A stretch of DNA of 64,000 nucleotides from Candidatus Brocadia sp. (lineage in GTDB: Bacteria; Planctomycetota; Brocadiia; Brocadiales; Brocadiaceae), in assembly GCA_021463795.1 (NCBI GenBank), contig JAJTXE010000003.1:553364-617363 (forward strand). The letters are read 5' to 3'. Positions 11,486 to 63,957 of this stretch are shown in pieces. The translations under genes were made by a program, and so were the position numbers. Each line of letters begins with the position of its first letter. Positions within the stretch are counted from its first letter, which is position 1. The notes under the pieces were generated by a model. That model was not told the DNA's origin and did not search any database. It saw only the letters and a program-made list of their open reading frames with translations.

Positions 11486-12012
11486 ATCGTTATCCCAACC
11501 CGAACAACCGGAAGAGTATTTTTTGATAGGAGATGCTGAATAAACTTGTCATAATGAAGCTCGGGTTTCATTACAATATTTTGCGCTTTGTCATTCAGAA
11601 CTTGTTTCGAAACCCCCTGTATTATAATAGGTTTTCTCCAACTTTCACTCTTTTTCATCTTTTGTTATTCTCAGTATATACTATAATATTATGCCCGAAG
11701 GCAATCCATCATTCCAGCATAAGTAATCAGGTGTGGTATAGGATGAAAAAATTTAACATTAATTTGCCGGAGAGAAGAGGAAAAACTGGCTTTTTTAAGA
11801 TGAGAAACCCGGTATTCAAGCTATGGAGAATACAACTCCCGATCTACCCCCTGTCCTTAAGAAAGACCTTGTTTTTCCAGAGACCATGAATATGTGCGGC
11901 ATGGGACAGTCAGAACGTAGCATTGATATTTCCTGTATAAGGCTTGCATAAGCAAGATTTTCTGCTAAACTACATTATGTCTCGATGGTGATTCGGTTGA
12001 CAGGATTGGAAA

Positions 12013-45081: not shown

Positions 45082-45370
45082 GCAATCTGTGAACAATTAT
45101 CTTCCCTACATGAGCCAGCGGTAACAGACAATCAATTTTCTCATACCATAGGAGCGGAATTGAAAACCGTAAGGTTGTTTAAGAATTATTCCTTCATCCC
45201 CGTTTCCCCGTTTTTATTGCAAATTTCACCCATGCTCAACAAACAGCATATTTGTTTGGTAAAATTAACAAGATTATGGACCCGTTTATAGGCGTCCGTA
45301 ATTTTAAAGATAAAATTTTTATACGTTTGAGGCAATGCCTCGATAAAATACCAAAAGGAGATTTTTGAGA

Positions 45371-47296
45371 ATGTACACAATAGGAATTGATATTGGTTCA
45401 ATGTCAACCAATGGAGTTCTGATAAATGAGAAAAAAGAGATTCTTTCATCAATCATAATACCAACCGGCGCCAGCAGCAAAAAGGCTGCTGATAAAATCT
45501 TTCAACAGATACTTACCGAAAACAAGCTGTCTGCAAGTGATATTGATTATATTGTTGCCACCGGCTATGGGCGTATTAAGGTGCCGTTTGCCAATGAAGT
45601 AGTAACAGAAATAACCTGTCATGCGAAGGGTGCAAACTACTATTTTCCCATGGCAAGAACAATCATTGATATTGGTGGACAAGACAGCAAGGTCATTAAG
45701 GTCGACGCGAATGGAAATGTCCTCGACTTTGTTATGAATGACAAGTGTGCTGCCGGAACGGGACGGTTTCTTGAGGTTATGGCCAGAACCCTGGAGATCG
45801 ATCTGGAAGAAATGGGACCAATTTCGTTGAACGGAAAGAATAATGTTTCCGTCAGCAGTCTTTGTACGGTATTTGCAGAATCCGAGGTGGTATCCCTCAT
45901 TGGCGCAGATCACAAAACGGCGGATATTTGCAAAGGCTTACACATTTCCATTGCCAAACGCATCACCGCGCAGCTCAAGAGGATTGGGCTGGAAGAAGAG
46001 ATTGTCATGACAGGCGGCGTTGCAAAGAATATCGGTGTTGTAACAGAGATAGAGAAACATCTTGGGTGTAAAATCAAGATTTCAGAAGAACCACAAATCA
46101 ATGGAGCGCTTGGGGCGGCATTGATTGCCCTGGAAAAGGCGCGGGTAAAAACCAATAACCCTGTCTCGGTGTCCGTTTCTGTCTCCGGAAATACACAAAC
46201 CGAAGCTTCCGTAACAGAATTTTCCATTGAGGACCACGCCTTACCGAAAATCGGGTATTTTTGTTCTTACACGCCGGTGGAGCTTATTCGCGCCGCCGGA
46301 TTCCATCCGGTCAGAATTAAGGGTTCAGAACAGGAATCGAGCGCTGCCAATGAAATGCTTTGCGGCAATATCTGCCCTTATATCAAGGCTGTTGTTGATC
46401 AAAAAGTCAATGGCCAGCTGGAAGATTTTAAAGGAATGGTGTTTGTCAATTCATGTGACGGGATGAGACGGCTGTATGATGCATGGATAAAATTAGATAA
46501 TGGGAAAAAGTCGTTTAACTATATCTTAGATATTCCAAAAAATACCGATGATGCCGCAGTTTTTTATTACGCAAACCTGCTCAAAAACTTCAAAGAAAAA
46601 CTGGAAACATTTTTCATGCTGAAGATCAATCAGGATGACATTAACCAGAGTATTACCATCTACAATGCGGTAAGGGAAAAAGTCCGGGTGTTTTTACAAA
46701 AGTACTGGAATGGCTATCTCGGACAATCCGGTTATGAGATCTTTTCCCTGTTAAAGAAGGGCGCTAATGCAGTGCCGGAGAAATTCCAGTCCTATTTGAC
46801 CCATCTGATGAAACAAAGGGAAGACATTCGTGATACCCGGGACATACCCAGGCTCTTCGTCTGGGGGAGCATCATGGAAAACGAAAAGATCATGAAGATT
46901 ATAGAGGACGCTGGTTCAAAGGTAATTGCAGAGGATTTATGCAATGGCAGCCGCTACTTTGACGCCCAGGTTCATGTCAGCGACGACCCCATCCTGTCCA
47001 TTGCCAGGAGATATATCCTGCGATCTCCGTGCTCCCGGATGGTTAACATCTTTGACAGGATTAATAATGTGCTGACCACGATGCAGGAAAGATCAATTCA
47101 TGGGGCGATTTATCACACACTCAAATTTTGTGATCACAATCTCCTGGATTACCCTATGATAAAAAAGACGTTCCACGAGAAAAATATTCCCCTCCTTCAT
47201 CTCAATTGTGATTATTCCCTGAGCAGTGAAGGCCAAATAAAAACAAGGGTTGAAGCATTTCTTGAACAATTAACCAGTACCTCCAGGAAAGAGTAA
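45371..47296 (+). CDS. fusion protein: BadF/BadG/BcrA/BcrD-type ATPase (HgdC-like activator) plus a 2-hydroxyacyl-CoA dehydratase / double-cubane-cluster-family subunit
   Basis: N-terminal part: MYTIGIDIGSMSTNGV..., IIDIGGQDSKVI, and the cluster-bridging cysteines MNDKCAAGTGRF and SSLCTVFAESE. Linker: ...PVSVSVSVSGN... C-terminal part: ...GYFCSYTPVELIRAAGFHPVR..., ...LCGNICPY..., ...FVNSCDGMRR... The frame is continuous. Confidence 0.85.
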   Translation: MYTIGIDIGSMSTNGVLINEKKEILSSIIIPTGASSKKAADKIFQQILTENKLSASDIDYIVATGYGRIKVPFANEVVTEITCHAKGANYYFPMARTIIDIGGQDSKVIKVDANGNVLDFVMNDKCAAGTGRFLEVMARTLEIDLEEMGPISLNGKNNVSVSSLCTVFAESEVVSLIGADHKTADICKGLHISIAKRITAQLKRIGLEEEIVMTGGVAKNIGVVTEIEKHLGCKIKISEEPQINGALGAALIALEKARVKTNNPVSVSVSVSGNTQTEASVTEFSIEDHALPKIGYFCSYTPVELIRAAGFHPVRIKGSEQESSAANEMLCGNICPYIKAVVDQKVNGQLEDFKGMVFVNSCDGMRRLYDAWIKLDNGKKSFNYILDIPKNTDDAAVFYYANLLKNFKEKLETFFMLKINQDDINQSITIYNAVREKVRVFLQKYWNGYLGQSGYEIFSLLKKGANAVPEKFQSYLTHLMKQREDIRDTRDIPRLFVWGSIMENEKIMKIIEDAGSKVIAEDLCNGSRYFDAQVHVSDDPILSIARRYILRSPCSRMVNIFDRINNVLTTMQERSIHGAIYHTLKFCDHNLLDYPMIKKTFHEKNIPLLHLNCDYSLSSEGQIKTRVEAFLEQLTSTSRKE

Positions 47297-47303
47297 GTAA
47301 AAC

Positions 47304-48647
47304 ATGACGTCAATTCGTAAATATAAGGAATGGTTAATACCACTCCGTCGTCGTTTTTCTCCGATGTTGTTTCGTGAACTTTTGCGGTTTCTGCGGGTCT
47401 ATTCTTTTTTCTTCCGGGGAAATAAAAAGAAAGAATTGGTTTCCCTGCGCGTTCAGACCCGTGTCGGCGTAAAGCATCTGTACAAGGTGTATGCCAACCC
47501 GAAACGAACTGTTTGGACGACGATGTTCGTTCCGTCAGAAATGCTGTTTGCCATGGGATTGTATCCTTTTTGCCTGGAAATTGGCGCGGCGCTCTTTGCT
47601 GGTTTGGGACAAAGCTCGAAGGGGCTTATGGAGGCTGAGTCATATGGAGTTCCCACGGATATCTGCACCTTTCACCGATCCGCAATCGGGCACACCTTCA
47701 GAGATCTTTTTCCCAAAAACATCCTCCAGGTGGCCACGACAACGCTTTGTGATAACAACACCAAGACGATGAAGATATGCGAGTCTGTATCGGGAAAAGA
47801 GACCATCGTTATTGACGTGCCTTACGAGGCAGATGATTATTCGGTTCAATATCTTGCGAAACAACTGGAAGATTTTGCTCGCCGGCTAGAAGAGATCTCA
47901 GGCAGGAAGATGGAACAAGCGGCACTTGCAAAAGCAATTGATTACGCAAACCAAACACGGGAAAAGATGATCGAAATCAATGAGTTGAGAAAAGATCCGT
48001 TTTGTCCCCTCCCCGGTAGCAATGCATTAGGGTTTATGTTTCCGGCATATTTGTTAATTGGCTCGAAACTATCCGTGGAGTTTTTCTCTGCGCTGGCTGC
48101 TGAATTACGTGAGAAAACTGAAGAAGACAAGAAGAAAGGGGGACCTAGTCCCCGAAAAGATCTGATCAGGATTCTTTGGTTAGAATTAAAGCCTTATTTT
48201 AAGGTCGATTTCCTGACAAAATTAGAACAGGAGCAAGGGGTCAGGATTGTTTTTGAGGAAACCAATTACGTATACTGGGATAAGCTTGATCCGCAAAGAC
48301 CCTATGAAAGCCTTGCAAAGAAGCTCATTACCAGCCACTATAATGGTCCATTGGAGCGGCGTATTGAGATAACCAGGAAGCTTGCCAGAGAGTATCAGGT
48401 TGACGGCGTAGTGGTATTTTCATCCTGGGGCTGCAGGCGCAATAATGCTGCTGTGCCCACGCTGAAAAGGGAATTGAATAAGATCGGCTACCCCCTCCTC
48501 AGTCTTGACGGAGATTGTATCGATGATCACAATTATATGCCGGGACAATTCTCCACACGGATAGAAGGCTTTTTAGAGATGTTACGGGGAAGGAAAACAT
48601 CCGAGAGCCTTCCACAACCAGAAATATGTGAAGTGGGGGCAAGTTAA
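47304..48647 (+). CDS. 2-hydroxyacyl-CoA dehydratase / benzoyl-CoA reductase BcrB/C / double-cubane-cluster family subunit
   Basis: ...VWTTMFVPSEMLFAMGLYPFCLE..., ...GVPTDICTFHRSAIG..., ...TTTLCDNNTKT..., ...SSWGCRRNN... Starts 7 nt after the previous gene. Confidence 0.8.
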   Translation: MTSIRKYKEWLIPLRRRFSPMLFRELLRFLRVYSFFFRGNKKKELVSLRVQTRVGVKHLYKVYANPKRTVWTTMFVPSEMLFAMGLYPFCLEIGAALFAGLGQSSKGLMEAESYGVPTDICTFHRSAIGHTFRDLFPKNILQVATTTLCDNNTKTMKICESVSGKETIVIDVPYEADDYSVQYLAKQLEDFARRLEEISGRKMEQAALAKAIDYANQTREKMIEINELRKDPFCPLPGSNALGFMFPAYLLIGSKLSVEFFSALAAELREKTEEDKKKGGPSPRKDLIRILWLELKPYFKVDFLTKLEQEQGVRIVFEETNYVYWDKLDPQRPYESLAKKLITSHYNGPLERRIEITRKLAREYQVDGVVVFSSWGCRRNNAAVPTLKRELNKIGYPLLSLDGDCIDDHNYMPGQFSTRIEGFLEMLRGRKTSESLPQPEICEVGAS

Positions 48648-48651
48648 AAGG

Positions 48652-49272
48652 TTATTCGCTTTCATCTCTGCAACATGCAAGGCCTGCCACGACTTTTTCC
48701 AGGGGTGTCTTCCTGCGTATGATACCAGGGATAGCGAAATGGGGCAGTGTCCGTCACCATAATGCCAGAACGGCCGCCGTTCCCGATGCATTGTCATTAG
48801 CCCCCGGTGTATCTTCAAGCGAGTCGTAGTGCCCGCCGATTACCACAATTTCTCCCGGCCTTTCAGAACCGGTAATCTCACCTTCAAGATTATAACATCT
48901 CCGACCTCGCAAACTGCTCAAACTCACTTCATAGCCTTGACGGGAGACCTTAAGGCCTGCTTGTTGCAACGATGCTTCAATAAAATCTGCCGCAACAGCA
49001 AGATTTTTGTAGTTCGTTCTGACATTGCGGTCGCCGATCACTCCGGCTAATTGGTACACATCTTCCCGCAAAGTTTGCCTCAATAATTTTTGTTCCTCTG
49101 TCAGGGCGGGCATTGGCCTCTGATAGTTTTTACCTGGCATTCGAAACATAACGAACCACACCCCAATGCAAACAAGAGCAACGACAGGAATAACGTAAAC
49201 AAGAGAAACTTTATGCCGCCAGTCCTTCTTTATAGATGAGACAGGAAGGCTTTGTCCTGGCAAACGTTTCAC
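48652..49272 (-). pseudogene. M28-family aminopeptidase, internally deleted and frameshifted
   Basis: The N-terminal part reads ...IVVIGGHYDSLEDTPGANDNASGTAAVLALW* (first His/Asp zinc ligands). About 5 codons later, in another frame, comes TAPFRYPWYHTQEDTP (the C-terminal His ligand block). The last stretch (L)EKVVAGLACCRDESE* returns to the first frame. The ~130-150 residues that normally carry the Glu-Glu and Asp ligands are missing. Confidence 0.75.
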
Positions 49273-50081: not shown

Positions 50082-50139
50082 AGGCTAAATGAGTATTGTA
50101 AAGATGTACTCCCCGCAACTAAATCTCCCCCCCTTGGCC

Positions 50140-50196
50140 GGTAGAACAAGCGTTCCCGTTTGTCATTACGATATCAACCTGGCGGCTGACCTGCCT
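50140..50196 (+). repeat. GTCATT-core palindromic intergenic repeat (copy A, full length)
   Basis: GGTAGAACAAGCGTTCCCgtTTGTCATTACGATATCAACctGGCGGCTGACCTGCCT. Collinear with the copy at 57997-58055, with additional flank similarity on both sides. Confidence 0.65.
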
Positions 50197-50525
50197 CATG
50201 GTTTTGAGGGTTGCAAAATACTTGTAAAAAATTGAAACAAAAAAGATAGGTACAATCAACCAAAAAAAACACCTTTCACATATCTGTTTTTACTCAAAAT
50301 AGGTCTGAATCTTTTGTCGCAGTCCCCTGTGCTATCGTCAGGGGTCAGCAGGGTTTTGAGAATTCTGACAGAAAATCACCATGTTGAGACAGCATTATTC
50401 GGACAAAAACATTTTAACCGGCATTGCTTTTGTGGATTGACATTGTCATGGAAAACTGGAATACTATTCAATTCTTAATAAAAGCAGAGGTAGGTGTATC
50501 ATTTATCTGGAATGAGGAGAAGGCT

Positions 50526-51284: not shown

Positions 51285-51776
51285 ATGGTGGAAAACAATA
51301 GAAGAAAATTCCTGAAAGTTGTGTCACATAGCCTGGGAGGTGTTTTGGCAGCAGGCATCGCAGCGCCACTGGTTGGTTTAGGGATACACCCGTGGCTGAA
51401 AGAAACAGTGTATGGAACTGAGGACTTTATTAACCTTGGCAAATTGGAAGATTTTCCCGTTGGTATTCCTAAAAAAATGAACGTTACCTCTTCCAAGATG
51501 GATGCATGGAATGTCTTTGAAGGATTGGTTATGGGGTCGGTTTGGGTGCTGCGGAAAGAAGATGATTCTTTAAAGGTATTTTCGGTAAATTGCCCGCATC
51601 TTGGCTGTGGCATCAACTGGGGAGAAGATGAAAAGCAATTTCTGTGTCCCTGCCACGAAGGGGTTTTTGACATAAATGGTAAGGTACTATCGGGGCCCGC
51701 ACCTCGCAGCCTTTACAGTTACGAAACGAAGATTGAAAATGATAATGTTCTGGTAAATTATAAAAAATTGATATAA
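51285..51776 (+). CDS. Rieske [2Fe-2S] protein with a twin-arginine signal
   Basis: NRRKFLKVV (Tat motif), CPHLGC...CPCHEGVF (Rieske boxes). 163 aa. Confidence 0.9.
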   Translation: MVENNRRKFLKVVSHSLGGVLAAGIAAPLVGLGIHPWLKETVYGTEDFINLGKLEDFPVGIPKKMNVTSSKMDAWNVFEGLVMGSVWVLRKEDDSLKVFSVNCPHLGCGINWGEDEKQFLCPCHEGVFDINGKVLSGPAPRSLYSYETKIENDNVLVNYKKLI

Positions 51777-51805
51777 AGATATTGTTAAAAGGTGATAGGT
51801 AATCT

Positions 51806-53593
51806 ATGGCAAACAAGCTTGGTGAATGGATAGAAGACAGAACTGGACTTAGCAAACTGTTAAAAGCGGCGTTGGATGAGCCAGTGCATGGCGGGGCCAA
51901 ATGGTCATATATTTTTGGGAGCGGACTGGTATTTCTCTTCGTTCTGCAGGCGGTGACCGGCATTTTTATGGCGAGTTACTATTCTCCTTCTTCGACGGCA
52001 GCGTGGGGAAGTGTTTATTACCTTCAGTACAAAACCTCTTTCGGATGGTTTGTACGCGGCGTGCACCATTATGGTTCGAGCGCAATGATGATCGTGGCCA
52101 TGGTGCATATGTTTCAGGTCTTTATTTTCGGCGCATATAAAAAACCCCGGGAGCTGAATTGGATTTCCGGAGTTATCCTGCTTTTATTCCTGGCTGGCTT
52201 TGGTCTTACCGGGTATCTGTTGCCTTGGGATCAGAAGGGATACTGGGCCACACAGGTTGCCACCAATATTATGGGAACGGTCCCGGTGATTGGAAAGTAC
52301 ATTAAGATTCTGCACCAGGGAGGGGCCGACTATGGGAATTTTACCATAACCCGTTTCTACACCCTGCATGTATTTTTATTACCCATTTCGCTCGTCTTTT
52401 TCCTCTTTATTCACATAGCCCTTTTTCGTAAGCACGGGGTAACCCCATATTGGAAAATGAGAGAAGATGTGTTAAGAGACCGTATTGACCCCTTTTGGCC
52501 TGACCAGATATTTAAAGACATTGTATTCGCTCTGGGCATGTATGCAGTCATTGCCGGCGTTGTTTTTTGGACACGGGGCGCCGAGCTGCAATCGCCAGCA
52601 GACCCTGCCTCTAATTACCTTGCACGGCCTGAATGGTATTTCTTATTCTTGTTTGAACTCTTAAAATATTGCCAGGGAAAATATCTCATTGTCGGAACTG
52701 TGATCATTCCCGCCCTTGCTCTGACTTTTTTATTTGTACTGCCATTTATCGACAGAAATACCTCAAGGTATCCTTCAAAGAGGATGCCATATTTTGGAGC
52801 GATATTTTCTGGATTGACCGGGGCCGTTGTTTTGACCGTGCTCGCCATGCATCATGACAGCAAGGATATCCATATCATCCATCAGCGTGAGGAGGCAGAG
52901 AAACAGGCCGCTAGAGCGGTGAAGTTAGCAGAAAAAGGTATTCCTCCCACGGGAGCCCTGTCGATCTTCCTTCACGATCCCCTTGCCCTTGGTGGAAAAA
53001 TCTTTAAAGAAAGCTGTATTGGTTGTCATAAAATAGGAGTGGAGGGCGGTGATAATGGCCCTGACTTTACCAACTTTGGTTCAAGAGAATGGATTGCCGG
53101 GCTGTTGAAAAACCCGAAAGACGTAAAGTATTTCAAAGAATCAGGGGCGATGCCTCCCATAAAACTCCCGGATGAATCACTCCTGGACATGACGGAATTC
53201 CTTTTAAGCCAGTCAGAGGGCTTGATCCATCAAAATGCCGAACGAGTGGAGAGGGGAAAAGAACTGGTATTAAAAGGGAATTGCGTTGTCTGCCATCCCA
53301 TTGGCAACAAAGACCTGAAAAAGATCGCACCAAACCTGACGGAATATCTGTCGGAGACATGGTTAAAAGAATTCATCAGGAACCCGGGCGATCCTAGATT
53401 CTACGGTACCAGGAATAAAATGCCTGCCTTTGACAGGCTTACCGATAGCCAGTTAGATGCACTGATTCAGTACTTATTCAGTTTATCAAAGGATCGGGCG
53501 CTGGTTTCCGAAAAACAGGAAAAGGGAAAAAGGGGGTATGTGTTCGGTCTCACCTCCCCGCGGACAATGATTACTTTTCAAGACAAGTCCTGA
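51806..53593 (+). CDS. cytochrome b (b6 plus subunit IV-like) fused to a C-terminal dihaem cytochrome c
   Basis: ...FVRGVHHYGSSAMMIVAMVHMFQVF... and ...GYLLPWDQKGYWAT... belong to the cyt b core. Two CxxCH motifs are present: CIGCH (nt 53015-53029) and CVVCH (nt 53282-53296). 595 aa. Confidence 0.9.
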   Translation: MANKLGEWIEDRTGLSKLLKAALDEPVHGGAKWSYIFGSGLVFLFVLQAVTGIFMASYYSPSSTAAWGSVYYLQYKTSFGWFVRGVHHYGSSAMMIVAMVHMFQVFIFGAYKKPRELNWISGVILLLFLAGFGLTGYLLPWDQKGYWATQVATNIMGTVPVIGKYIKILHQGGADYGNFTITRFYTLHVFLLPISLVFFLFIHIALFRKHGVTPYWKMREDVLRDRIDPFWPDQIFKDIVFALGMYAVIAGVVFWTRGAELQSPADPASNYLARPEWYFLFLFELLKYCQGKYLIVGTVIIPALALTFLFVLPFIDRNTSRYPSKRMPYFGAIFSGLTGAVVLTVLAMHHDSKDIHIIHQREEAEKQAARAVKLAEKGIPPTGALSIFLHDPLALGGKIFKESCIGCHKIGVEGGDNGPDFTNFGSREWIAGLLKNPKDVKYFKESGAMPPIKLPDESLLDMTEFLLSQSEGLIHQNAERVERGKELVLKGNCVVCHPIGNKDLKKIAPNLTEYLSETWLKEFIRNPGDPRFYGTRNKMPAFDRLTDSQLDALIQYLFSLSKDRALVSEKQEKGKRGYVFGLTSPRTMITFQDKS

Positions 53594-53682
53594 GCAAAAT
53601 CCGGAAGCTGATGCACGGAAGTTCAACAGAATTATAACATCTATATCGTGGTGCAGCAAAGCCGTAAACAAATCCCTCTATT

Positions 53683-53712
53683 GGTAGGACAAGCGTCCCG
53701 GTTGACCTACCT
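53683..53712 (+). repeat. GTCATT-family repeat, collapsed copy B (arms only, central core missing)
   Basis: GGTAGGACAAGCGTCCC|GGTTGACCTACCT is the left and right arms of copies A and C joined directly (11 of 13 bp stem). Left-flank similarity to copy C is also present (caaagc..aaac.aat.cctct.tt). Confidence 0.6.
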
Positions 53713-54120
53713 AACAGCCGTATTCTGATTGCCGTAAGCGAAATGGTGAAGGAGGGCGGTTTAGGAAACGATATCAGTGAATTGCCGGTGGCTGGCGCGT
53801 GCACGGAGTGGATGAGTGAAAAGGCAATTGCTATCGGGCAATTTCTGGTAGCCTCTGGTATTTATACCGTCTTTGGTATGAATTCGCCGGTGGCTGGTGC
53901 TCCCGATATGCAAAGGTTGCTAACAAAAGAGATGGAAGAGATGTGTGGCGCACGATGGGATTTTGAGGCTGATTTAAAGAAGATCGGAAAGATGCTCATG
54001 GATCACATCGAAAAGAAGAGAGATGCACTTGGTATTAACGTGAATAAGGAGAGAAAACTGTACGATATGGCTGAGAGAAGGGCGCTCGAAAGGGAGTGCA
54101 AGCCGGCAGCACATCATTAA
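53713..54120 (+). pseudogene. acsA: Ni,Fe-CO dehydrogenase catalytic subunit (AcsA/CooS), C-terminal ~135 codons only
   Basis: NSRILIAVSEMVKEGGLGNDISELPVAGACTEWMSEKAIAIGQFLVASGIYTVFG... matches the extreme C-terminus of CooS/AcsA (..VDNSRI.., LPVA...EWMSEKA). An in-frame stop lies at 53665-53667. No N-terminal ~500 codons exist upstream, because the cyt b stop is at 53593. Confidence 0.8.
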
Positions 54121-54142
54121 AGTGATTTAAAGGGGTGTTTTT

Positions 54143-56326
54143 ATGTCCAAGATTATCTGTACTGCCGCCATTCGCGGCGCATATAAAATTGTAGATAAGG
54201 CTGATAAAAAACTTGCCGATGCAATAGCGCAAAAGGGACGCGATTGCAAGGTGGAGTTTCCGAACACGGCGTATTACTTGCCCATCATTTATTCCATGAC
54301 GGGTGTTGCCGTGAAAACACTGGAGGATTGCGAGTATATCCTGGGAATGGCGCGGAGCATGCTCCCGCCATTGCCGGCAGAAAAGCACTGGGTACCTTAC
54401 CTTGGGCATACCCTTGATGCCGGGATGGCAACGCTTTTTGCCGAGGAAGTGTATGAGGCCTGTAAATATCTCATCGGGCCTCACCCGGTAGACGGAATAT
54501 GGCTTGGCGCTGCTGATGACGTTATCATGCGCGAACGCGGCATTGAGTTTGTCGATGGCACGGCGCCAGGGTTTGCCGCAATTGTGGGGTGTGCGCCTGA
54601 TGCAGATACGGCCGTGAAGATTGCCAGGGAACTTCAGCAAAAGAATCTGTACGTGTTTATGCAGTCAGATAATTTTGGGACATCGTTTGCCGAGCAATTG
54701 GCTGAAAAGGGCGTCCAGATGGGGTGGGATACCCGACTGGTGCCTTTTGGAAAAGAGACCTCGGCTGCTGTATATTCTCTGGGTTTTGCCAACAGGGCAG
54801 CCCTTTCATTTGGAAATGTGCCCCCCGGTGAGGCAAGGAGAAATCTCCTCTATAACAAAAACCGCATCTTTGCATTTGTTATGGCAATAGGAACCGCCGT
54901 AACAGATGAACAGTATGCCAACGCAGCGGGTGCTATCAATTATGGTTTTCCGACGATTTCAAATATCGACATTCCGGAGATATTGCCCACCGGCGTATGT
55001 ACCTATGAACACGTGGTTTCAAGGGTGCCGGTGGACAAGATTGTTGATAAATGCATTGAAGTCCGTGGGCTAAAGATTTCTATCCACAAGATGGATATCC
55101 CCGTGGCGTACGGTCCGGCTTTCGAAGGTGAGCGTATCAGAAAAGAGGATATGCAGATTGAGATTGGCGGCCCCGGCGTCCCTGCATTTGAATATGTGTG
55201 CACCAAAGAAATTGACGCGGTTGAGGATGGCAAAATACAGGTTATCGGGCCAGACCTGGACGAAATTAAGCCGGGACCAGGTGTGTCGCTTGGTATCATG
55301 GTTGAGGTGGCAGGCCGAAAGATGCAGCCTGATTTTGAGCCAATCTTCGAACGTCAGATGCACCGGTTTCTGGGTGAAGCCCAGGGCCTGTTCCACATGG
55401 GGCAAAGGGACATCATCCGTCATCGCATCAGTAAAGAGGCATTTAAGGCAGGGTTCAGGATCAAGCATATCGGCAGTATCATCCATTCGCAGTTCCATAG
55501 TAATTTTGGGGCGATTGTTGACAAAGTGCAGGTTACCTTTTATACCAAAAGGGAAGATGTGGAGCGGATATTAAAAGACGTGCGCGCCGCTTATGCAGAG
55601 CGTGATGCGCGATTAGAGGGTATGACCGATGACTCGGTGAACATGTTTTACAGTTGCACCCTCTGTCAAAGTTTTGCGCCTACCCATATTTGCGTTGTGA
55701 CACCGGAACGTTCCGGTCTTTGTGGCTCCGTCAGCTGGCTGGACGGCAAGGCAGGCTACGAGATCAACCCCACAGGGCCAAATCAGCCGATCGAGCGTGG
55801 CAAGGTGGTGAATGAAAATCTGGGGCAGTGGGAAGGCACGAACTCATTTATCTATAATGGGTCAAACCGGTCGCTGGAGAAGGTAAGTTTGTATAGTATT
55901 ATGACAGACCCGATGACCAGTTGCGGCTGTTTTGAGTGCATCTCGGCGATGTTGCCCATGACGAATGGGATTATGGTGGTAGACCGTGACTTCACGGAAA
56001 TGACCCCCTGTGGTATGAAATTTTCCACGCTTGCCGGGACGGTTGGCGGTGGTTTGCAGACCCCCGGGTTTATGGGGCACAGCAAGTTTTATTTAGGCAG
56101 TAGGAAATTCATTTCAGCCGATGGTGGTTTGGGCCGTGTTGTGTGGATGCCCAAGGCACTGAAGGAGGAGTTGGCGGAAACGCTTGCCGATACGGCACAG
56201 GAGCTTGGTCTTGAAGATTTTCTCAATAAAATAGCTGATGAAACGGTTGCTCAGACTGAGGACGAAGTTGTGGCTTATATGCAGAAAGTTAGCCATCCGG
56301 CTTTGGTTATGCCGGGAAAAGATTAA
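54143..56326 (+). CDS. acsB: acetyl-CoA synthase (CODH/ACS A-cluster subunit)
   Basis: MSKIICTAAIRGAYKIV..., A-cluster cysteines CTLCQSFAPTHICVVTPERSGLCG and SCGCFEC. 727 aa, apparently full length. Confidence 0.95.
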   Translation: MSKIICTAAIRGAYKIVDKADKKLADAIAQKGRDCKVEFPNTAYYLPIIYSMTGVAVKTLEDCEYILGMARSMLPPLPAEKHWVPYLGHTLDAGMATLFAEEVYEACKYLIGPHPVDGIWLGAADDVIMRERGIEFVDGTAPGFAAIVGCAPDADTAVKIARELQQKNLYVFMQSDNFGTSFAEQLAEKGVQMGWDTRLVPFGKETSAAVYSLGFANRAALSFGNVPPGEARRNLLYNKNRIFAFVMAIGTAVTDEQYANAAGAINYGFPTISNIDIPEILPTGVCTYEHVVSRVPVDKIVDKCIEVRGLKISIHKMDIPVAYGPAFEGERIRKEDMQIEIGGPGVPAFEYVCTKEIDAVEDGKIQVIGPDLDEIKPGPGVSLGIMVEVAGRKMQPDFEPIFERQMHRFLGEAQGLFHMGQRDIIRHRISKEAFKAGFRIKHIGSIIHSQFHSNFGAIVDKVQVTFYTKREDVERILKDVRAAYAERDARLEGMTDDSVNMFYSCTLCQSFAPTHICVVTPERSGLCGSVSWLDGKAGYEINPTGPNQPIERGKVVNENLGQWEGTNSFIYNGSNRSLEKVSLYSIMTDPMTSCGCFECISAMLPMTNGIMVVDRDFTEMTPCGMKFSTLAGTVGGGLQTPGFMGHSKFYLGSRKFISADGGLGRVVWMPKALKEELAETLADTAQELGLEDFLNKIADETVAQTEDEVVAYMQKVSHPALVMPGKD

Positions 56327-56471
56327 CCGTTTGATTTCTGTTGAGACGGGACAACCCCTGGGAAAGGTAGAGACGGATACCAAGAGAAATTTCTGGATGT
56401 CCGCTGAAGAAGCTTTCAAATACGGATTGGTCAGTAAAATTATACAGACGAGTGATGATTTAAAGACATAG
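56316..56471 (+). pseudogene. clpP: ClpP protease, C-terminal ~45-50 codon remnant
   Basis: EKINRLISVETGQPLGKVETDTKRNFWMSAEEAFKYGLVSKIIQTSDDLKT* matches the ClpP C-terminal pattern (…TGQ..e.i..Dt.RD.fMsAeEA.eYGL.D.I…). It overlaps the acsB stop in another frame. No catalytic part lies upstream. Confidence 0.7.
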
Positions 56472-56612
56472 TTTTATGGTAATTGCTCAATATCAACGGC
56501 ACGCATGTTCTTTTTATATCCACTCCGTTATCCACTTTTCATGAATGCGGGTGAGTGGGTGGTTATTCGTTTGATGATGTGCAAATTTCTTTATGTGAAA
56601 GGATAGTAGAGC

Positions 56613-57953
56613 ATGGCACTAACGGGATTAGACATTTATAAACTCCTTCCCAAAACAAATTGCAAGAAGTGCGGAAGGCCTACCTGTCTTGCATTTGCGA
56701 TGCAATTGGCGCAAAAAAAGGCAAACCTGTCGGATTGTCCGGATGTAAGCGAAGAGGCAAAAAAAGTGCTGGGTGCGGCAGCAGCCCCTCCCATTAAACT
56801 CGTGACGGTTGGTGCGGGCGCCAGACAAGTTCAGGTGGGTGAGGAAAATGTCCTGTTCAGACACGAAGAGAAGTTTTATCATCCCACGGGCGTCGCCGTC
56901 ACTATCCCGGACGACCTGAGTGAAGATGCTTTCAACGACCGGTTAAAAAAGGTTAACAGTTTGAAACTTACCCGTGTTGGTACGGAAATCGAGATTGACC
57001 TGATTGCCGTGATGAACAAGAGCAATAATGCAGAAAAATTTGCCGAAGCGGCAAAGAAAGTAAGTGCCGGGTCTCATTTGAATATGATTTTAAGCAGTGC
57101 GTCTGTGGATAATATGAAGGCTGCTTTGCAACATTGTGCTGAAAAGAGACCGCTGCTTCATGGCGCCAGTGCCAGCAACTGTGAGGCAATGGCAGCTCTT
57201 GCACAGGAAAAGAAGTGCCCGATGACCGTAACAGCCCAGACCCTTGAGGAGCTTGCTGAACTGGCAGAACGTGCCAAAAAGGCTGGCGTTGAAGAGATTG
57301 TTCTGGATGTGGGAGGGAACAATCCCAAAGAGGTGCTGCAAAAACTGACCAAGGTTCGTCGCCTTGCCTTAAAGAAAAATTTCCGCACGCTCGGATTCCC
57401 GATGATTACCTTTGTGTGTGATGAAGACCCGTTCCAGGAAATCGCACTGGCAAGCACCTATTTGCTGAAGTATGCCGGCATTGTTGCGGTGAATGCGTGT
57501 GAGCCATGGGCAATTATGCCCCTGCTTACTGCCAGGACAAATATATTTACGGATCCGCAAAAGCCCATACAGGTGGAGCCGCGATTGTACGCCGTTGGTG
57601 ACGTTAAGGATGATTCCCCGATATTGTTTACCACAAACTTCTCACTTACCTATTATACGGTTGAGGGAGAGGTTGAGTCGAGCCGTGTGCCTGCCTATAT
57701 TTTAGCGGTGGATACGGGTGGGACCTCCGTGCTAACTGCGTACTCAGGAGACAAATTAAACGACAAGGTGGTTGCGAAGGCCATGACAGACGCACAGGTT
57801 GATACCAAGGTAAAGCATAAGAAAATGATCATCCCGGGTCTTGTTGCCGTGATGTCCGGGAAATTGCAGGAGACCCTTGGATGGGAAATTCTGGTGGGTC
57901 CACGAGAGGCTTCGGGACTCCCTTCCTATCTGAAAACGGTGTGGAAAGCGTAA
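56613..57953 (+). CDS. acsC: corrinoid iron-sulfur protein, large subunit
   Basis: MALTGLDIYKLLPKTNCKKCGRPTCLAFAMQLAQKKANLSDCP ([4Fe-4S] motif). 446 aa. Confidence 0.95.
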   Translation: MALTGLDIYKLLPKTNCKKCGRPTCLAFAMQLAQKKANLSDCPDVSEEAKKVLGAAAAPPIKLVTVGAGARQVQVGEENVLFRHEEKFYHPTGVAVTIPDDLSEDAFNDRLKKVNSLKLTRVGTEIEIDLIAVMNKSNNAEKFAEAAKKVSAGSHLNMILSSASVDNMKAALQHCAEKRPLLHGASASNCEAMAALAQEKKCPMTVTAQTLEELAELAERAKKAGVEEIVLDVGGNNPKEVLQKLTKVRRLALKKNFRTLGFPMITFVCDEDPFQEIALASTYLLKYAGIVAVNACEPWAIMPLLTARTNIFTDPQKPIQVEPRLYAVGDVKDDSPILFTTNFSLTYYTVEGEVESSRVPAYILAVDTGGTSVLTAYSGDKLNDKVVAKAMTDAQVDTKVKHKKMIIPGLVAVMSGKLQETLGWEILVGPREASGLPSYLKTVWKA

Positions 57954-57996
57954 CATAACAAAGCTGCAACCAATACCTCTCTATTACCTCTCTCTT

Positions 57997-58055
57997 GGTA
58001 GGACAAGCGTCCCCACTTGTCATTATGATGTCAACCGGGGACGGTTGACCTGCCT
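57997..58055 (+). repeat. GTCATT-core palindromic intergenic repeat (copy C, full length)
   Basis: GGTAGGACAAGCGTCCCCacTTGTCATTATGATGTCAACcGGGGACGGTTGACCTGCCT. The outer arms are an imperfect inverted repeat. The core has GTCA..GTCA spaced 11 nt apart. Confidence 0.65.
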
Positions 58056-58175
58056 TAGGGATTTGCGGACGTGGTAAAAAACTTGCAAAAGCATGTCCTC
58101 ATGAAAATGGGGAAAGAATTTCTTACACAATAATACGATAAAACTGTTTAAGGATTTTCACTTCAGGTCTAATGT

Positions 58176-60203
58176 ATGGAAAACTCACGATTTAAAGTAC
58201 AGTTCTTTCCTGTTGACGTTACCGTAGAGATTGAAAAGGGAAAAACTATCCTCGATGCTGCATATAAGGGAGACCTGTTTATAAACGCCCTGTGCGGGGG
58301 CGACGGCACGTGCGGCAAGTGTAAAGTCATTCTGGGTTCCGGTATGATTGAAAGCATGCCCACGACTCATATCTCGGTATCAGAGGCGCAAAAAGGGTAT
58401 GTCCTCGCATGCAGTACAAAGGTAATGGGCAACCTGGAAGTAATCATTCCTGAAGAATCGAAGCTTGATAAAAGTCAAATCCTTGTCAGTGAATTTCCTC
58501 AATTCTCAGGTTCCCTGGCAGCAGCTACCGCTAACGTGGAACATTTTCAGCAAGACCCTTTGGTGAATAAAGTATATCTTGAACTGCCGCAACCTACCCT
58601 GGATGACAGTATGGCTGATTATGAGCGGCTGTGCAGGGAGATCATGGTGAAAACCCACGTTCCACTGGAAAAGCTGACTACAAATTTCGATGTCCTCAAA
58701 CGCCTTCCGGGTATTCTGAGGAGCAGTAACTGGAAGGTGACGATGACGCTGGGATACAGGGGTCCGTCGGTAGAAATTATGGAAATACAGGGGGGCAATG
58801 CCAGCGAAGGAAATTATGGTGTTGCCGTGGACGTTGGAACAACCACGGTGGTTGCGCACCTTATGAATCTTTCCCGCGGAGAGACGGTCGATGTTGAAGC
58901 AACCTACAATTCTCAGATTAAATATGGGGACGATTATATTCAGAGGATTATGTATGCCGCTGAAAATAACGCCATGGAGCTCATGCAGGAGGTGCTGGTT
59001 GAGGATATTAACCATCTCATTTCTACCCTTGTTAAGAGAAACCATCTTAGTATCCACGATATTCATGCGGTGGTTTGTGCGGGAAATACGGTAATGACCC
59101 ATTTTCTCATCGGTTTGGACCCTACGAATATCAGAAAAGAGCCGTATCTTCCGTCCGCAAGCTTTGTGCCTCCGTTGAGGGCACATGAGGTAGGGGTGAA
59201 AATTAATAGCAACGGCCTGCTCTATACCCTCCCGTGCGTTGGCGCTTATGTGGGAGGGGATATTTCTTCTGGTGCTTTGGCAATCAGGCTGGACAAGGCG
59301 GAGATGTTGTCGCTGCTCGTTGATATCGGCACGAATGGCGAGATTGTGCTGGGCAATAAAGACTGGATGGTGTGCTGTTCCGCATCGGCAGGCCCTTCTT
59401 TTGAAGGCAGCGGTATCTCCTGTGGTACCCGTGCGGCTAAGGGTGCTATTGAAAAGGTGTCGATTACAAAAAATTACCATGTTACGTATAAAACCATCGG
59501 AGACGCCCCGGCAAGCGGTATTTGTGGCTCCGGGCTTTTAGACTGCCTGGCGAATCTTGTCAGAAGTGGTGTCATCGACAGAACTGGCAATTTCCAGAAA
59601 GGAATAAGCTCAGATCGTTTGAGGAAAACAGACAACGGCTATGAATTTATCCTGGTTGACAGGAGCGAAACCTCTACAAAACGGGATATCGTTATTACCC
59701 AGGCGGACATTCAGAATCTCATGCGGTCAAAAGCGGCGATCTATTCGGCAATCTCTACCCTGCTCGAATCCATGGGAATGGAAGCAAGTAATATTGAGCA
59801 GCTCTATCTTGCGGGCGGGTTTGGCAATTATCTCGACATACGGAGCGCGATCACGATTGGGATGCTCCCTGACATGTCTGCTTCAAAAGTACAGTTTGTA
59901 GGGAATACCTCGGTGCTTGGCGCAAAGATGGTCCTCCTCGCAAAAGATGCCTATGAAGTGATGCTCCCTGACATGTCTGCTTCAAAAGTACAGTTTGTAG
60001 GGAATACCTCGGTGCTTGGCGCAAAGATGGTCCTCCTCGCAAAAGATGCCTATGAAGTTGCCAGAGTCATTGCGTCCAAGATGACATATTTTGATCTCAT
60101 GAGTAATAATAAATACATGGAGGAATATGTATCGGCAAACTTTTTGCCGCACACCGATATTGAAAAATTTCCATCCGTTGCAGAGGAACTGATGGTAAGT
60201 TAG
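58176..60203 (+). CDS. reductive activase of the corrinoid Fe-S protein (RACo: [2Fe-2S] ferredoxin plus ASKHA ATPase, DUF4445-type), carrying an internal 33-aa duplication
   Basis: N-terminal CGGDGTCGKCKV...LAC ferredoxin, ASKHA motifs VAVDVGTTTVVAH and LLVDIGTNGEIVLG. 675 aa including the duplicated MLPDMSASKVQFVGNTSVLGAKMVLLAKDAYEV. Confidence 0.9.
   Translation: MENSRFKVQFFPVDVTVEIEKGKTILDAAYKGDLFINALCGGDGTCGKCKVILGSGMIESMPTTHISVSEAQKGYVLACSTKVMGNLEVIIPEESKLDKSQILVSEFPQFSGSLAAATANVEHFQQDPLVNKVYLELPQPTLDDSMADYERLCREIMVKTHVPLEKLTTNFDVLKRLPGILRSSNWKVTMTLGYRGPSVEIMEIQGGNASEGNYGVAVDVGTTTVVAHLMNLSRGETVDVEATYNSQIKYGDDYIQRIMYAAENNAMELMQEVLVEDINHLISTLVKRNHLSIHDIHAVVCAGNTVMTHFLIGLDPTNIRKEPYLPSASFVPPLRAHEVGVKINSNGLLYTLPCVGAYVGGDISSGALAIRLDKAEMLSLLVDIGTNGEIVLGNKDWMVCCSASAGPSFEGSGISCGTRAAKGAIEKVSITKNYHVTYKTIGDAPASGICGSGLLDCLANLVRSGVIDRTGNFQKGISSDRLRKTDNGYEFILVDRSETSTKRDIVITQADIQNLMRSKAAIYSAISTLLESMGMEASNIEQLYLAGGFGNYLDIRSAITIGMLPDMSASKVQFVGNTSVLGAKMVLLAKDAYEVMLPDMSASKVQFVGNTSVLGAKMVLLAKDAYEVARVIASKMTYFDLMSNNKYMEEYVSANFLPHTDIEKFPSVAEELMVS
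59861..60058 (+). repeat. perfect 2 x 99-bp in-frame tandem duplication inside the RACo gene
   Basis: Unit 1 (59861-59959) and unit 2 (59960-60058) are identical base for base (gatgctccctgacatgtctg...gatgcctatgaagt). The flanking bases differ, so each unit is exactly 99 bp (33 codons). Confidence 0.97.
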
Positions 60204-60246
60204 GCCTTCGGCTACGTATAAATACAAATTTTCCCGACTGGAGTCC

Positions 60247-60304
60247 ATCCCCTTTCACCCCTGCCAGCGGGGGACATTTGTTTGTCGCCTTCCGTGAGAG
60301 GGAT
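60247..60304. repeat. imperfect palindrome of the CCCCTTTCAC...GTGAGAGGG type
   Basis: ATCCCCTTTCAC (60247-60258) pairs with GTGAGAGGGAT (60294-60304), with mismatches. Intergenic, between the RACo gene and cooC. Confidence 0.35.
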
Positions 60305-60359
60305 TAAGGGGGAGAAAATTTTTGTTTGAAATTTCTAAACCTTCAAAAAAGAGGTTTCT

Positions 60360-61151
60360 ATGGCTTTTAATATTGCAGTGGCAGGAAAGGGAGGAACGGG
60401 GAAGTCGACCCTTTCTGCCCTTATTATCCGATATATTACCGAAGAGCTTGGTAAGCCGGTATCGGCGGTAGATGCCGATCCGAATGCGTCTCTCGGTTCA
60501 TTGCTTGGTCTGCACGTGCAAAGCACCGTTGCTGACATCCGTGAAGATATCGTGGAGAAAAAAGTAGATTTTTCCGGGATGTCTAAGGACAGATATATTG
60601 AGTATGCCATCGAGGAGTCTATCATTGAAAAGGAGAAATTTGATCTTTTAACGATGGGGAGGCCGGAAGGGCCGAAATGTTATTGCTATGTCAATAATCT
60701 CCTGCGTAAATATCTTGATAAAGTAGGCACAACGTACCCGTTTATTGTTACCGACAATGAGGCAGGGATGGAGCATCTCTCACGCAGGACAACGAACAAT
60801 GTCGATCTCCTGTTGATTGTAAGTGAACCAACGATTGTAGGTGCATTGACCTTACAAAGGATCATCGCATTAGCTGAATCTCTTTCGGTTACGATCCGGC
60901 AAAAGTATTGTATCCTAAACCGGGTGCCCCAGAAGGGTATTCATGAAAATCTTCAGCAGAAGTTGGACAGCCTGGGAATTGAAGTATCTGCGATTTTCCC
61001 CTTTGATCAGGAGGTTTACGATACTGCGGCGTGTGGTGCTTCTGTGTTTGAAATTTCCCGTGAAAATGAGCTATATCAAAAACTGGGGAATTTCCTGCAG
61101 AAACATTTGCCGGCAAGTATGCTCGAAAAGAGCATCTCTGGGCGTACCTAA
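60360..61151 (+). CDS. cooC: CooC/AcsF-type Ni-insertion accessory ATPase
   Basis: AVAGKGGTGKST (P-loop) and GPKCYCYVNN (the CxC metal site). 263 aa. Confidence 0.9.
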   Translation: MAFNIAVAGKGGTGKSTLSALIIRYITEELGKPVSAVDADPNASLGSLLGLHVQSTVADIREDIVEKKVDFSGMSKDRYIEYAIEESIIEKEKFDLLTMGRPEGPKCYCYVNNLLRKYLDKVGTTYPFIVTDNEAGMEHLSRRTTNNVDLLLIVSEPTIVGALTLQRIIALAESLSVTIRQKYCILNRVPQKGIHENLQQKLDSLGIEVSAIFPFDQEVYDTAACGASVFEISRENELYQKLGNFLQKHLPASMLEKSISGRT

Positions 61152-61185
61152 AAGAGCGCGCCTTTAAAGGTTATACGCAGACACT

Positions 61186-61243
61186 TGTCATTGCGAGGAA
61201 CGCATGTAACGAAGCAATATTAATTCAAGGTTTAGGAATTTTA
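61186..61243. repeat. GTCATT-core repeat (copy R6) followed by a 25-nt motif shared with 44186-44210
   Basis: cacTTGTCATTGCgaggaacgcatgtaacgaaGCAATattaattcAAGGTTTAGGAATTTtaa. The stretch attaatt-N-aaggtttaggaattt-N-aa recurs at 44186-44210 with 2 mismatches. Confidence 0.45.
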
Positions 61244-61420
61244 ACCTTTTTGACTCAGGTAGAGCGACCAGCCTTGTCGTTCCACAATGAGGGAAGCTTA
61301 AAGTCGCTGCCTAAGGCAGCCAAAATAAAGAAAAACTCGTTCATTGACGTGTCCGCCAGCACGATGATGAGGTTTCTTGAGATTTTTAGATATTGAACGG
61401 ATTGGGTAGGAGAGAAATGA

Positions 61421-62380
61421 ATGGAAATACCAAATGTAGCTGACAAGTGGTCGGGTACGGTTAATGAAATTACCCTTGGCGCCACAAAGGACAATGGAGG
61501 TACGAGGACAAAGACCATTACGATTGGTGGTGCAAAAAGTATCCCTTTTATGGACTTTGAGGGGAATCCGGGACAAAAGCCTGTGGTTGCCATGGATGTC
61601 TATGACGTGCCGCCGGAAGACTGGCCGGAAACCCTGGCAAAACCTTTTGCGGACGTCCTTAACGATCCGGCACAATGGGCAAAAAAGTGCGTGGAACAGT
61701 ATGGTGCAGATTTAATCTGCCTCAAATTGGAGGGAATTCATCCCGATAAAGGCAACAAAACTGCAGAAGAGACCGTAAAGACGGTAAAATCGATCCTTGC
61801 TGCAGTAGGTGTCCCCCTGATTATCTGGGGATGTGAACATGACGAAAAAGACAATGAGGTCATGCCCAAGATAAGCCAGGCTGCAAGGGGAGAATGTTGT
61901 CTGATGGGGGTTGTTACCCAGGATAATTACAAGACACTTACCGCTACATGTCTGGCGGACGGACATGCGCTTATTACGCTGGCTCCGGTGGATATCAATA
62001 TTGCAAAACAGGTAAATATTCTTGTGTCTGAAATGGATTTTCCGCTCAACCGGATCGTGATGTTTCAGTCAACCGGTGCCCTGGGTTACGGTCTTGAGTA
62101 CACCTATTCTATTCAGGAACGCGAACGGCTGGCGGCGCTTACGGGTGATAAGATGATGTCGATGCCCGTAATCTGTGATGTTGGGCATGAGGCGTGGAGA
62201 ACCAAGGAGTCAAAATCGGGCGATAATGAAGTTCCCCAGTGGGGAGCGCGGGATGAGAGAGGCCCCATGTGGGAGGCTATTACGGCGGTTGGTTTGCTGC
62301 AGTCGGGTGTGGATATTATCCGTATGAGCCATCCGAAGGCCGTTGCTACGGTAAAAAAGTGTATTGACCGTTTATATTAA
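61421..62380 (+). CDS. acsD: corrinoid iron-sulfur protein, small subunit
   Basis: MEIPNVADKWSGTVNEITLGATKDNGGTRTKTITIGG... 319 aa, TIM-barrel-type CdhD/AcsD pattern. Confidence 0.95.
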   Translation: MEIPNVADKWSGTVNEITLGATKDNGGTRTKTITIGGAKSIPFMDFEGNPGQKPVVAMDVYDVPPEDWPETLAKPFADVLNDPAQWAKKCVEQYGADLICLKLEGIHPDKGNKTAEETVKTVKSILAAVGVPLIIWGCEHDEKDNEVMPKISQAARGECCLMGVVTQDNYKTLTATCLADGHALITLAPVDINIAKQVNILVSEMDFPLNRIVMFQSTGALGYGLEYTYSIQERERLAALTGDKMMSMPVICDVGHEAWRTKESKSGDNEVPQWGARDERGPMWEAITAVGLLQSGVDIIRMSHPKAVATVKKCIDRLY

Positions 62381-62485
62381 AAAACGTAATATTCACCTCA
62401 AAGACACGAATGACACAAAGGAAGAACGAAAGTAATAAAAAGTTCAAGGAATTGATAATTTTTAGAAAGAAAGGATAAACATACA

Positions 62486-63097
62486 ATGATTTCCATCGGT
62501 GAGCGCATTAATGGTATGTTTAAAGATGTACGAGAGGCGATAAAGAATAAAGATCCGAAGGCAGTAAGGGAACTTGCCATAAGACAGACAGAAGCAGGGG
62601 CAAGCTTTCTCGACGTAAATGTCGGCACTGCCGCAGCTGACCCTGTTGAGGCAATGAAATGGCTGATTGAGGTGGTTCAGGATACGGTAAAGACGCCGAT
62701 CGCCATTGATAGCCAGAAATTTGATGTAGTAAAGGCGGGTTTATCAGTTGCAAAGAACGAGATCTTGATCAATTCTTCAAAAGGAGATCCAGAAGAATTG
62801 GATAAATTCATGACCATAGCCAAGGAATATAATGCATCACTGATATGCCTGACCATGGATAAAACCGGTATTCCGCAGGACGTCGAGCGTCGCATGGAAT
62901 TTGCCATGAAGATCGTTGAAAAGGCCGTGGAGCATGAATACGAACTGTCAAAGGTCTATATCGATCCCATACTTTTCCCTATTAATGTTGATCAGAAGCA
63001 GCCAGCGCTCATGTTCGACATCTTCAATCAGATTAGAGGCACAAGCTGCAGGGGTGCCTACGATCGGTTATGGGGCATTTATCAATACGATCATTGA
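62486..63097 (+). pseudogene. acsE: methyl-THF:corrinoid/Fe-S protein methyltransferase, 3'-truncated after about codon 184
   Basis: MISIGERINGMFKDVREAIKNKDP...[27 protein letters not shown] is collinear with AcsE/MeTr. Expected next is ...P..KTV.GLSNVS... plus ~75 more residues. Instead the frame reads [19 protein letters not shown]. Confidence 0.8.
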
Positions 63098-63411: not shown

Positions 63412-63957
63412 TTAATAGATATTTTTCCTCTCAGATTTATTTTCCAGACAAGCAAGATAGTGGAGCGCTATCTCATTTTTCGGAGCAATTTCCAGCACTT
63501 TTTTATACCAGGAGATAGCAGTTCTATCCTCATGAATTTGGCGATAGGCATGACCCAGGTTCAAACGGACCCGCACTTTCGCAAGATCGTTTTCTCCTGC
63601 CAAAAGATCCGCCTTTCGATAGTTTTCAATCACAAATTCATAGAGATCAGTCCGATAGTATTTTGCCAGTGGCCATATGGTATCGGCTGATTCTTTATAA
63701 TAACGCTCTGATTTCTGGTTCCACTGTTTTCCCCAATTCAGAAGTTCAACGGCCTGATCTGCTTTTCCCTCACCATCAGGCATCCGGTTTGGGTTTTTTG
63801 TCCAGGATACCCATTTCGACCACAGCAGCCAGGCCATCGTAGTATAGGTATCGATATCTTTACGATCAATGGTAACAATTCGATAACCAATGCGAATCGC
63901 CTTGTTATAGCTTCCCGCGGGATTATCAAAATGCTGGTTGTCTATGTAAAAGCCCAT
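63412..63957 (-). CDS. TPR-like repeat protein, function unknown
   Basis: 181 aa. AAGGAG lies just upstream of the ATG at 63957. The C-terminal ...LNLGHAYRQIHEDRTAISWYKKVLEIAPKNEIALHYLA... is a TPR unit. Confidence 0.55.
   Translation of the reverse strand: MGFYIDNQHFDNPAGSYNKAIRIGYRIVTIDRKDIDTYTTMAWLLWSKWVSWTKNPNRMPDGEGKADQAVELLNWGKQWNQKSERYYKESADTIWPLAKYYRTDLYEFVIENYRKADLLAGENDLAKVRVRLNLGHAYRQIHEDRTAISWYKKVLEIAPKNEIALHYLACLENKSERKNIY

Follow-up and report, generated by a model that had tools for sequence, protein, structure and literature searches.

The gene for the reductive activator of the corrinoid/Fe-S protein (RACo) in one contig of a Candidatus Brocadia species contains a 99-bp segment twice in direct succession, which raises the question of whether the organism carries this duplication or whether it was introduced when the contig was built. 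The stretch of DNA analysed, 64 kb in length and termed the window, contains no N bases, and the coordinates of its relevant features are collected in Table 1. The first-pass annotation had described two identical 99-bp units with distinct flanks, and this description holds: the copies match at all 99 of 99 positions, and Tandem Repeats Finder reports a period of 99, 2.0 copies, 100% matches and a score of 396. The repeat is the sole exact repeat of 20 or more bases in the 64-kb window, and an origin by chance is excluded. The copies meet at 59959/59960, where GAAGT is followed by GATGC. On the outer sides, the flanks diverge immediately (ATTGG on the left and TGCCAG on the right), so the unit is exactly 99 bp long. 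It begins at codon position 3, is in frame and leaves the open reading frame (ORF) running to its normal stop; the peptide MLPDMSASKVQFVGNTSVLGAKMVLLAKDAYEV stands twice in succession in the 675-aa protein, in agreement with the 33-codon unit described earlier. The repeat is thus confirmed as genuine in the deposited sequence. As a trait of the organism, it is probably not real. The best explanation, to which we assign a probability of about 0.65, is a false duplication made at an assembly join of the 1.16-Mb contig, where an overlap was left untrimmed.

Table 1. Positions of the RACo repeat, the acs operon genes and a neighbouring intergenic element in the window
Feature	Position	Strand	Remarks
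Repeated intergenic element, short copy	53676-53712	+	window-private junction 53712/53713
acsA remnant (CODH catalytic subunit)	53743-54120	+	125 aa; 653-654 aa in relatives; homology starts at 53713
acsB (acetyl-CoA synthase)	54143-56326	+	last 4 codons replaced by those of clpP via a 744-bp deletion at 56311
acsC (CoFeSP large subunit)	56613-57953	+	Pfam FeS and CdhD; exact protein also in SRR33746415
RACo	58176-60203	+	675 aa with the duplication, 642 aa without
99-bp unit, copy 1	59861-59959	+	RACo residues 563-595; identical to copy 2
99-bp unit, copy 2	59960-60058	+	RACo residues 596-628; homologues align here
CooC/AcsF-like P-loop ATPase	60360-61151	+	exact protein on many independent contigs
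acsD (CoFeSP small subunit)	61421-62380	+	
acsE-like methyltransferase (Pterin_bind)	62486-63097	+	203 aa; 261 aa in relatives; homology ends at 63035

The gene itself was correctly named as RACo at first pass, as is evident from its domains, its sequence and its predicted fold. The product contains the Pfam domains Fer2, RACo_linker, Raco_middle and RACo_C_ter. Fer2, the N-terminal plant-type [2Fe-2S] ferredoxin domain, covers residues 13-83 (E = 2.5e-11), and scores elsewhere are 79 bits for PF17650, 187.5 bits for PF17651 and 357 bits, in two stretches, for PF14574. Residues C40, C46, C49 and C79 are invariant in the 58-59 homologues aligned. The match to RACo of Carboxydothermus hydrogenoformans (3ZYY) has an E-value of 7e-162, and a Foldseek search with the AlphaFold model returned 3ZYY and 4C1N at the top, followed by Hsp70 and sugar kinases. 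The C. hydrogenoformans enzyme, also represented by its complex with the corrinoid/Fe-S protein CoFeSP (4C1N), has the same four-part layout of ferredoxin, linker, middle and ASKHA domains. It differs from the window protein, to which residues 560-630 of 3ZYY align twice, in that the latter has 33 additional residues found in no other RACo examined. ASKHA ATPases of the RACE type carry out the ATP-driven reduction of inactive Co(II) corrinoids to the Co(I) state (PMC7317905). By homology, the window RACo is assigned to these reductive activators, and reduction of Co(II)-CoFeSP is predicted for it as a property of the family. Its genomic setting, with acsC upstream and a cooC-like gene and acsD downstream, has the same order in relatives. 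In Ca. Brocadia caroliniensis (AYTS01000093.1) and Ca. Brocadia pituitae (AP021856.1), RACo is single-copy (642 and 641 aa, respectively) and shares 99% amino acid and ~97% nucleotide identity with that of the window; their acs operons follow the window's gene order, with the differences that clpP lies between acsB and acsC and that acsA and acsE are full-length. Homologues assign the window to Candidatus Brocadia.

Within RACo, the repeat falls in the conserved C-terminal part of the ASKHA domain, where the first-pass annotation had placed it; the unit comes after the GGFG motif, and P598, F607, G609, N610 and G615 are invariant in the 58-59 homologues. In the model of the single-copy protein (mean pLDDT 76.8, pTM 0.76), the unit is predicted to comprise a loop, a strand (572-576), a helix (578-588) and the beginning of a further helix (590-602), consistent with the earlier view of it as a beta-alpha element of the ATPase fold. 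That annotation had also proposed aligning homologues and modelling both variants. The homologues align to copy 2, and copy 1 is predicted to be disordered in the AlphaFold2 model of the 675-aa protein (mean pLDDT 69.5, pTM 0.68), in which residues 548-598, including copy 1, have pLDDT values below 50. Copy 2 is modelled as the native strand (605-609) and helices (611-621 and 623-635) with pLDDT values of 67-92, and the C-terminal tail is also less confident. The native appearance of one copy is weak evidence, because it is partly set by how homologues align. A looped-out insertion of 33 residues is conceivable on the basis of this model. In T4 lysozyme, tandem duplications engineered by the Matthews laboratory reportedly left one copy native and the other extruded; as in the window RACo, these were in-frame repeats of a secondary-structure element in a folded domain. 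However, the T4 lysozyme duplications were designed and experimentally characterised, whereas that of the window RACo is known from sequence and may be absent from the DNA itself.

A genuine in-frame tandem duplication of very recent date in a strain or subpopulation, neutral or mildly harmful, would accommodate the open frame and the model, with one copy native and the other forming a 33-residue loop-out. The duplication keeps one complete native sequence path, and AlphaFold2 places copy 2 natively. However, the unit that is repeated holds invariant residues, and the mean pLDDT of the model drops from the single-copy to the two-copy form, with a weaker C-terminal tail. This reading is unlikely.

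Among the listed members of its 90%-identity cluster, the 675-aa RACo has a single known source, an NCBI contig of 1,160,425 bp; the others are 641-642 aa long or fragments. Lengths among the best 120 of 7,586 RACo homologues range from 485 to 664 aa, and full-length RACo matches in 94 related loci span 1875-1926 nt, which is the single-copy length. An exact look-up of contigs encoding the 675-aa protein found none on record. Moreover, a degenerate-codon pattern for the junction (DAYEV joined to MLPDM) gave 0 matches in 185,579 species genomes and the JGI metagenomes, collections that do not include the window's own record; there is therefore no independent sighting of the duplication. The exact CooC protein of the window is encoded on ten further contigs. 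Five of these (from B. caroliniensis, SRR33746415, SRR13076528, SRR18853683 and SRR26868051) span the repeat site, and each has a single copy.

One of these sequences comes from the Logan assembly of SRR33746415 (contig L001), where a 642-aa allele (P0122) with one 99-bp unit is otherwise identical to the window RACo. Contigs of this run are 100% identical in DNA to window positions 58025-61704, yet contain one unit only. Across 54995-61704 (~6.6 kb), they differ at a single base, at 56363, and keep clpP. The operon around this allele has clpP in place, an acsE of 261 aa and an acsA that is uncut at the point matching 53713 (at least 653 aa, running off the end of the locus). Similarity to SRR33746415 forms a mosaic, with the one mismatch in 54995-61704 and ~3% divergence in 53713-55000 and 61705-63035, a pattern suggestive of mixed strains, of recombination or of chimeric contigs in either assembly. 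The duplication is thus private to one record, and a single-copy, otherwise identical allele exists, which argues for an artefact of joining. Its absence from every independent assembly, including one with a single base difference over ~6.6 kb, counts against a real duplication; on the other side, a very recent private mutation would likewise be absent from other assemblies.

The boundaries of the unit have no microhomology (0 bp): the unit start GATGC faces TGCCA in the right flank, and TTGG in the left flank faces the unit end AAGT. Replication slippage usually differs in this respect, and classical slippage is disfavoured because of it. As to the origin, the first-pass annotation had named recent slippage, a variant within the population and an artefact of assembly without choosing among them; of these, the artefact is now favoured, and slippage in its classical form has lost ground. 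Of the marks of a genuine duplication, two head-to-tail copies are present, whereas boundary microhomology is absent and no independent sighting in a strain or population was found. The length of the unit also speaks against a real duplication, being that of a standard assembler k: k = 99 is part of the standard k lists of MEGAHIT and SPAdes, and contig names with the prefixes k99_, k127_ and k141_ occur among Brocadiaceae MAGs in the related loci. With 100% identity between its copies, the repeat may have the length of the k used for the window's record.

Genuine deletion of the slippage type does occur in this lineage, a point in favour of a real duplication. The Peptidase_M28 gene (48694-49272) is decayed; it lacks 408 bp between direct repeats of 11 bp, TAATGCCAGAA, and the same deletion is found in GCA_949281235.1 and several Logan runs. 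Likewise, 28 nt have been lost from a copy of an intergenic repeat, and this deletion, which has 2 bp of microhomology, is found in independent assemblies. The assemblies with these two deletions are 99.2-99.9% identical to the window, and both deletions are regarded as real lineage features because independent assemblies have them. The 408-bp deletion had been entertained as an assembly anomaly and was withdrawn as such, being common to independent assemblies. Microhomology length was similarly rejected as a discriminator between real and artefactual changes, the lineage-real 28-nt deletion having 2 bp only. A 44-bp deletion in the M28 gene, associated with a 10-bp repeat, is present in the window only. 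Single-base indels relative to relatives are intergenic where checked against the ORF list, and the base-level quality of the window is therefore good. Both this quality and the reality of some other deletions in the window weigh against an artefact of joining, and the former also favours a real duplication.

The RACo repeat is not the only private feature of the operon. Comparison with B. caroliniensis, B. pituitae, Brocadia WS118 and Logan contigs identified three further private structural differences within 9.3 kb, at 53712, 56311 and 63035. At the first of these, the window keeps only the last ~408 bp of acsA (53713-54120), directly after a cytochrome b/c gene. At the second, the 744-bp deletion removes clpP, which is present between acsB and acsC in all close relatives, and the acsB product changes its tail from VMAPMF to VMPGKD before the stop while its length is still 727 aa. 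The conserved presence of clpP within an anammox acs operon is curious in itself. At 63035/63036, the truncated acsE-like gene abuts the 3ʹ half of an mscL-like gene, as read by eye. This mscL-like half extends to ~63280 and ends in a CxxC...CxxC tail, and a TPR gene follows at 63412-63957 on the minus strand. For each of the variant proteins encoded by the acsA remnant (P0192), acsB (P0135) and the acsE-like gene (P0150), the 1,160,425-bp NCBI contig is the only known source.

In the complete genome of B. pituitae, ~60 kb separates cytochrome b from the acs operon, which is on the other strand; one inversion or one wrong join would therefore produce the junction at 53712. Upstream of the operon, the window contains a gene pair resembling 2-hydroxyacyl-CoA dehydratases of the BcrAD/HGD-D type (45365-48647) and a Rieske protein with a cytochrome b/c fusion of a bc1-type complex (51285-53593); both stretches are collinear with B. 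pituitae 310-322 kb.

An independent Logan contig (L103/L117) ends exactly at window position 53712, and four contigs from other runs (L102, L115, L116 and L120) read through this point, with C or T as the next base and the usual downstream sequence thereafter. On the other side, the base that natively precedes 53713 in acsA is C or T among close strains. Unitigs from strain mixtures end at variable sites such as those on both sides of 53712, and a random breakpoint would be so flanked on both sides with a chance of roughly 2%, a rough estimate from few sequences. The junction therefore looks like a join of de Bruijn contigs. It coincides with the end of a short copy of an intergenic repeat, an element ~75 nt long that contains an inverted repeat, GTCAACCGG...CGGTTGAC. 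Copies of this element are found in the window at 50133-50209, 53676-53712 and 57990-58068 and in contig L100 at 8335-8424 and 11871-11944, and several Logan contigs break within the copy at 58025-58045. The element may be a REP/MITE-like sequence or a terminator.

Should all private changes be real, the acs operon would be in the course of being dismantled, through loss of the Wood-Ljungdahl pathway or as a redundant partial copy, and the RACo repeat would be one lesion among others under relaxed selection. The acsA remnant of 125 aa, the truncated acsE and the clpP deletion do all lie in one operon, and a single inversion with breakpoints in acsA and after cytochrome b would give the junction at 53712. 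However, one base difference stands beside two structural changes in ~6.6 kb, so such decay would be extremely recent; none of the four changes is found in any independent assembly; and the search gave a single RACo locus in the complete genome of B. pituitae. In addition, anammox bacteria depend on the Wood-Ljungdahl pathway for carbon fixation. We regard wholesale decay of the operon as highly improbable. A real recent variant of whatever kind is, overall, doubtful.

The same disproportion between structural and base differences relative to SRR33746415 is also explicable by chimeric or template-switched molecules or reads, arising from amplified DNA or as long-read chimeras, that were kept in a draft and later polished. 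The operon fragment from 53713 to 63035, 9.3 kb in length, lies between junctions to unrelated loci in an orientation opposite to that of B. pituitae, as a chimera might. Neither the duplication junction nor the clpP deletion has more than 2 bp of microhomology (0-2 bp), which is compatible with this origin, and polishing would render both copies identical. Chimeric molecules, however, leave unexplained the exact length of 99 and the coincidence of 53712 with a strain-variable branch point and with the end of an independent contig. An origin of this kind is rather improbable.

A false duplication by an untrimmed overlap would address both points. The deposited contig would have been stitched from shorter, graph-derived pieces. 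Two neighbouring pieces would have had the same 99 bases at the end of one and the start of the next, and would have been concatenated without trimming. In a de Bruijn graph at k = 99, adjacent contigs would have an overlap of exactly 99 bases. Truly adjacent pieces, left untrimmed, would then yield a perfect 99-bp tandem repeat with arbitrary boundaries, whereas missing or misplaced pieces would appear as deletions and rearrangements. The RACo of the organism would be the ordinary single-copy form of 642 aa. False duplications at contig boundaries are a common assembly error and may pass for tandem duplications (Rhie et al., doi 10.1101/2020.05.22.110833). The homotype duplications of that study resemble the window case in that the sequence of one locus is doubled in tandem at a join. 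They differ in that they were observed in long-read vertebrate assemblies, with a duplicated length close to the read length, whereas in the window the length equals a de Bruijn k and there is no gap at the join.

Several observations argue for this explanation. The same contig has other anomalies of the join type, one of which, 53712, lies at a graph-type branch point. Furthermore, two structural differences but a single differing base in ~6.6 kb are hard to square with ordinary divergence. As a matter of arithmetic, suggestive but not evidence, the 744 bp missing at 56311 and two 99-bp overlaps sum to 942 bp, below a common contig cut-off of 1 kb. Against it, a contig of 1.16 Mb suggests long reads, and the argument from k = 99 is void for a pure long-read assembly. 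No strain SNP, the sign of a de Bruijn branch, was found among relatives directly beside the unit boundaries, and the k-overlap mechanism of the join is therefore one that we infer, as we do the lack of read support for two copies. The contig of one unrelated MAG (L109; GCA_028283925.1, JAQFVR010000097.1) starts at window position 60063, 5 bp past the end of the unit, and this was judged to be chance. No restriction or ligation motifs (GATC, AATT) were seen by eye at the junction sequences.

If the duplication were true, it would be a natural test of the tolerance of the ASKHA ATPase core to insertion, and would still be a private, very recent variant and not an evolved feature. If all rearrangements were true, the acs operon would have been caught mid-dismantling, with CODH split by an inversion, clpP lost, acsE cut and RACo extended by 33 residues, which would point to an anammox bacterium in which Wood-Ljungdahl carbon fixation has recently been lost or is redundant. 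The RACo repeat is most likely not a biological novelty at all, having arisen in contig building. Its main value is for quality control: a useful warning pattern for genome scans is a perfect tandem repeat that has the length of an assembler k, lacks microhomology and finds no support in sister assemblies. For the anammox carbon-fixation operon, the RACo of 675 aa, the CODH fragment of 125 aa and the truncated methyltransferase in the public record are probably wrong, and inference about metabolism or protein evolution from this record could mislead.
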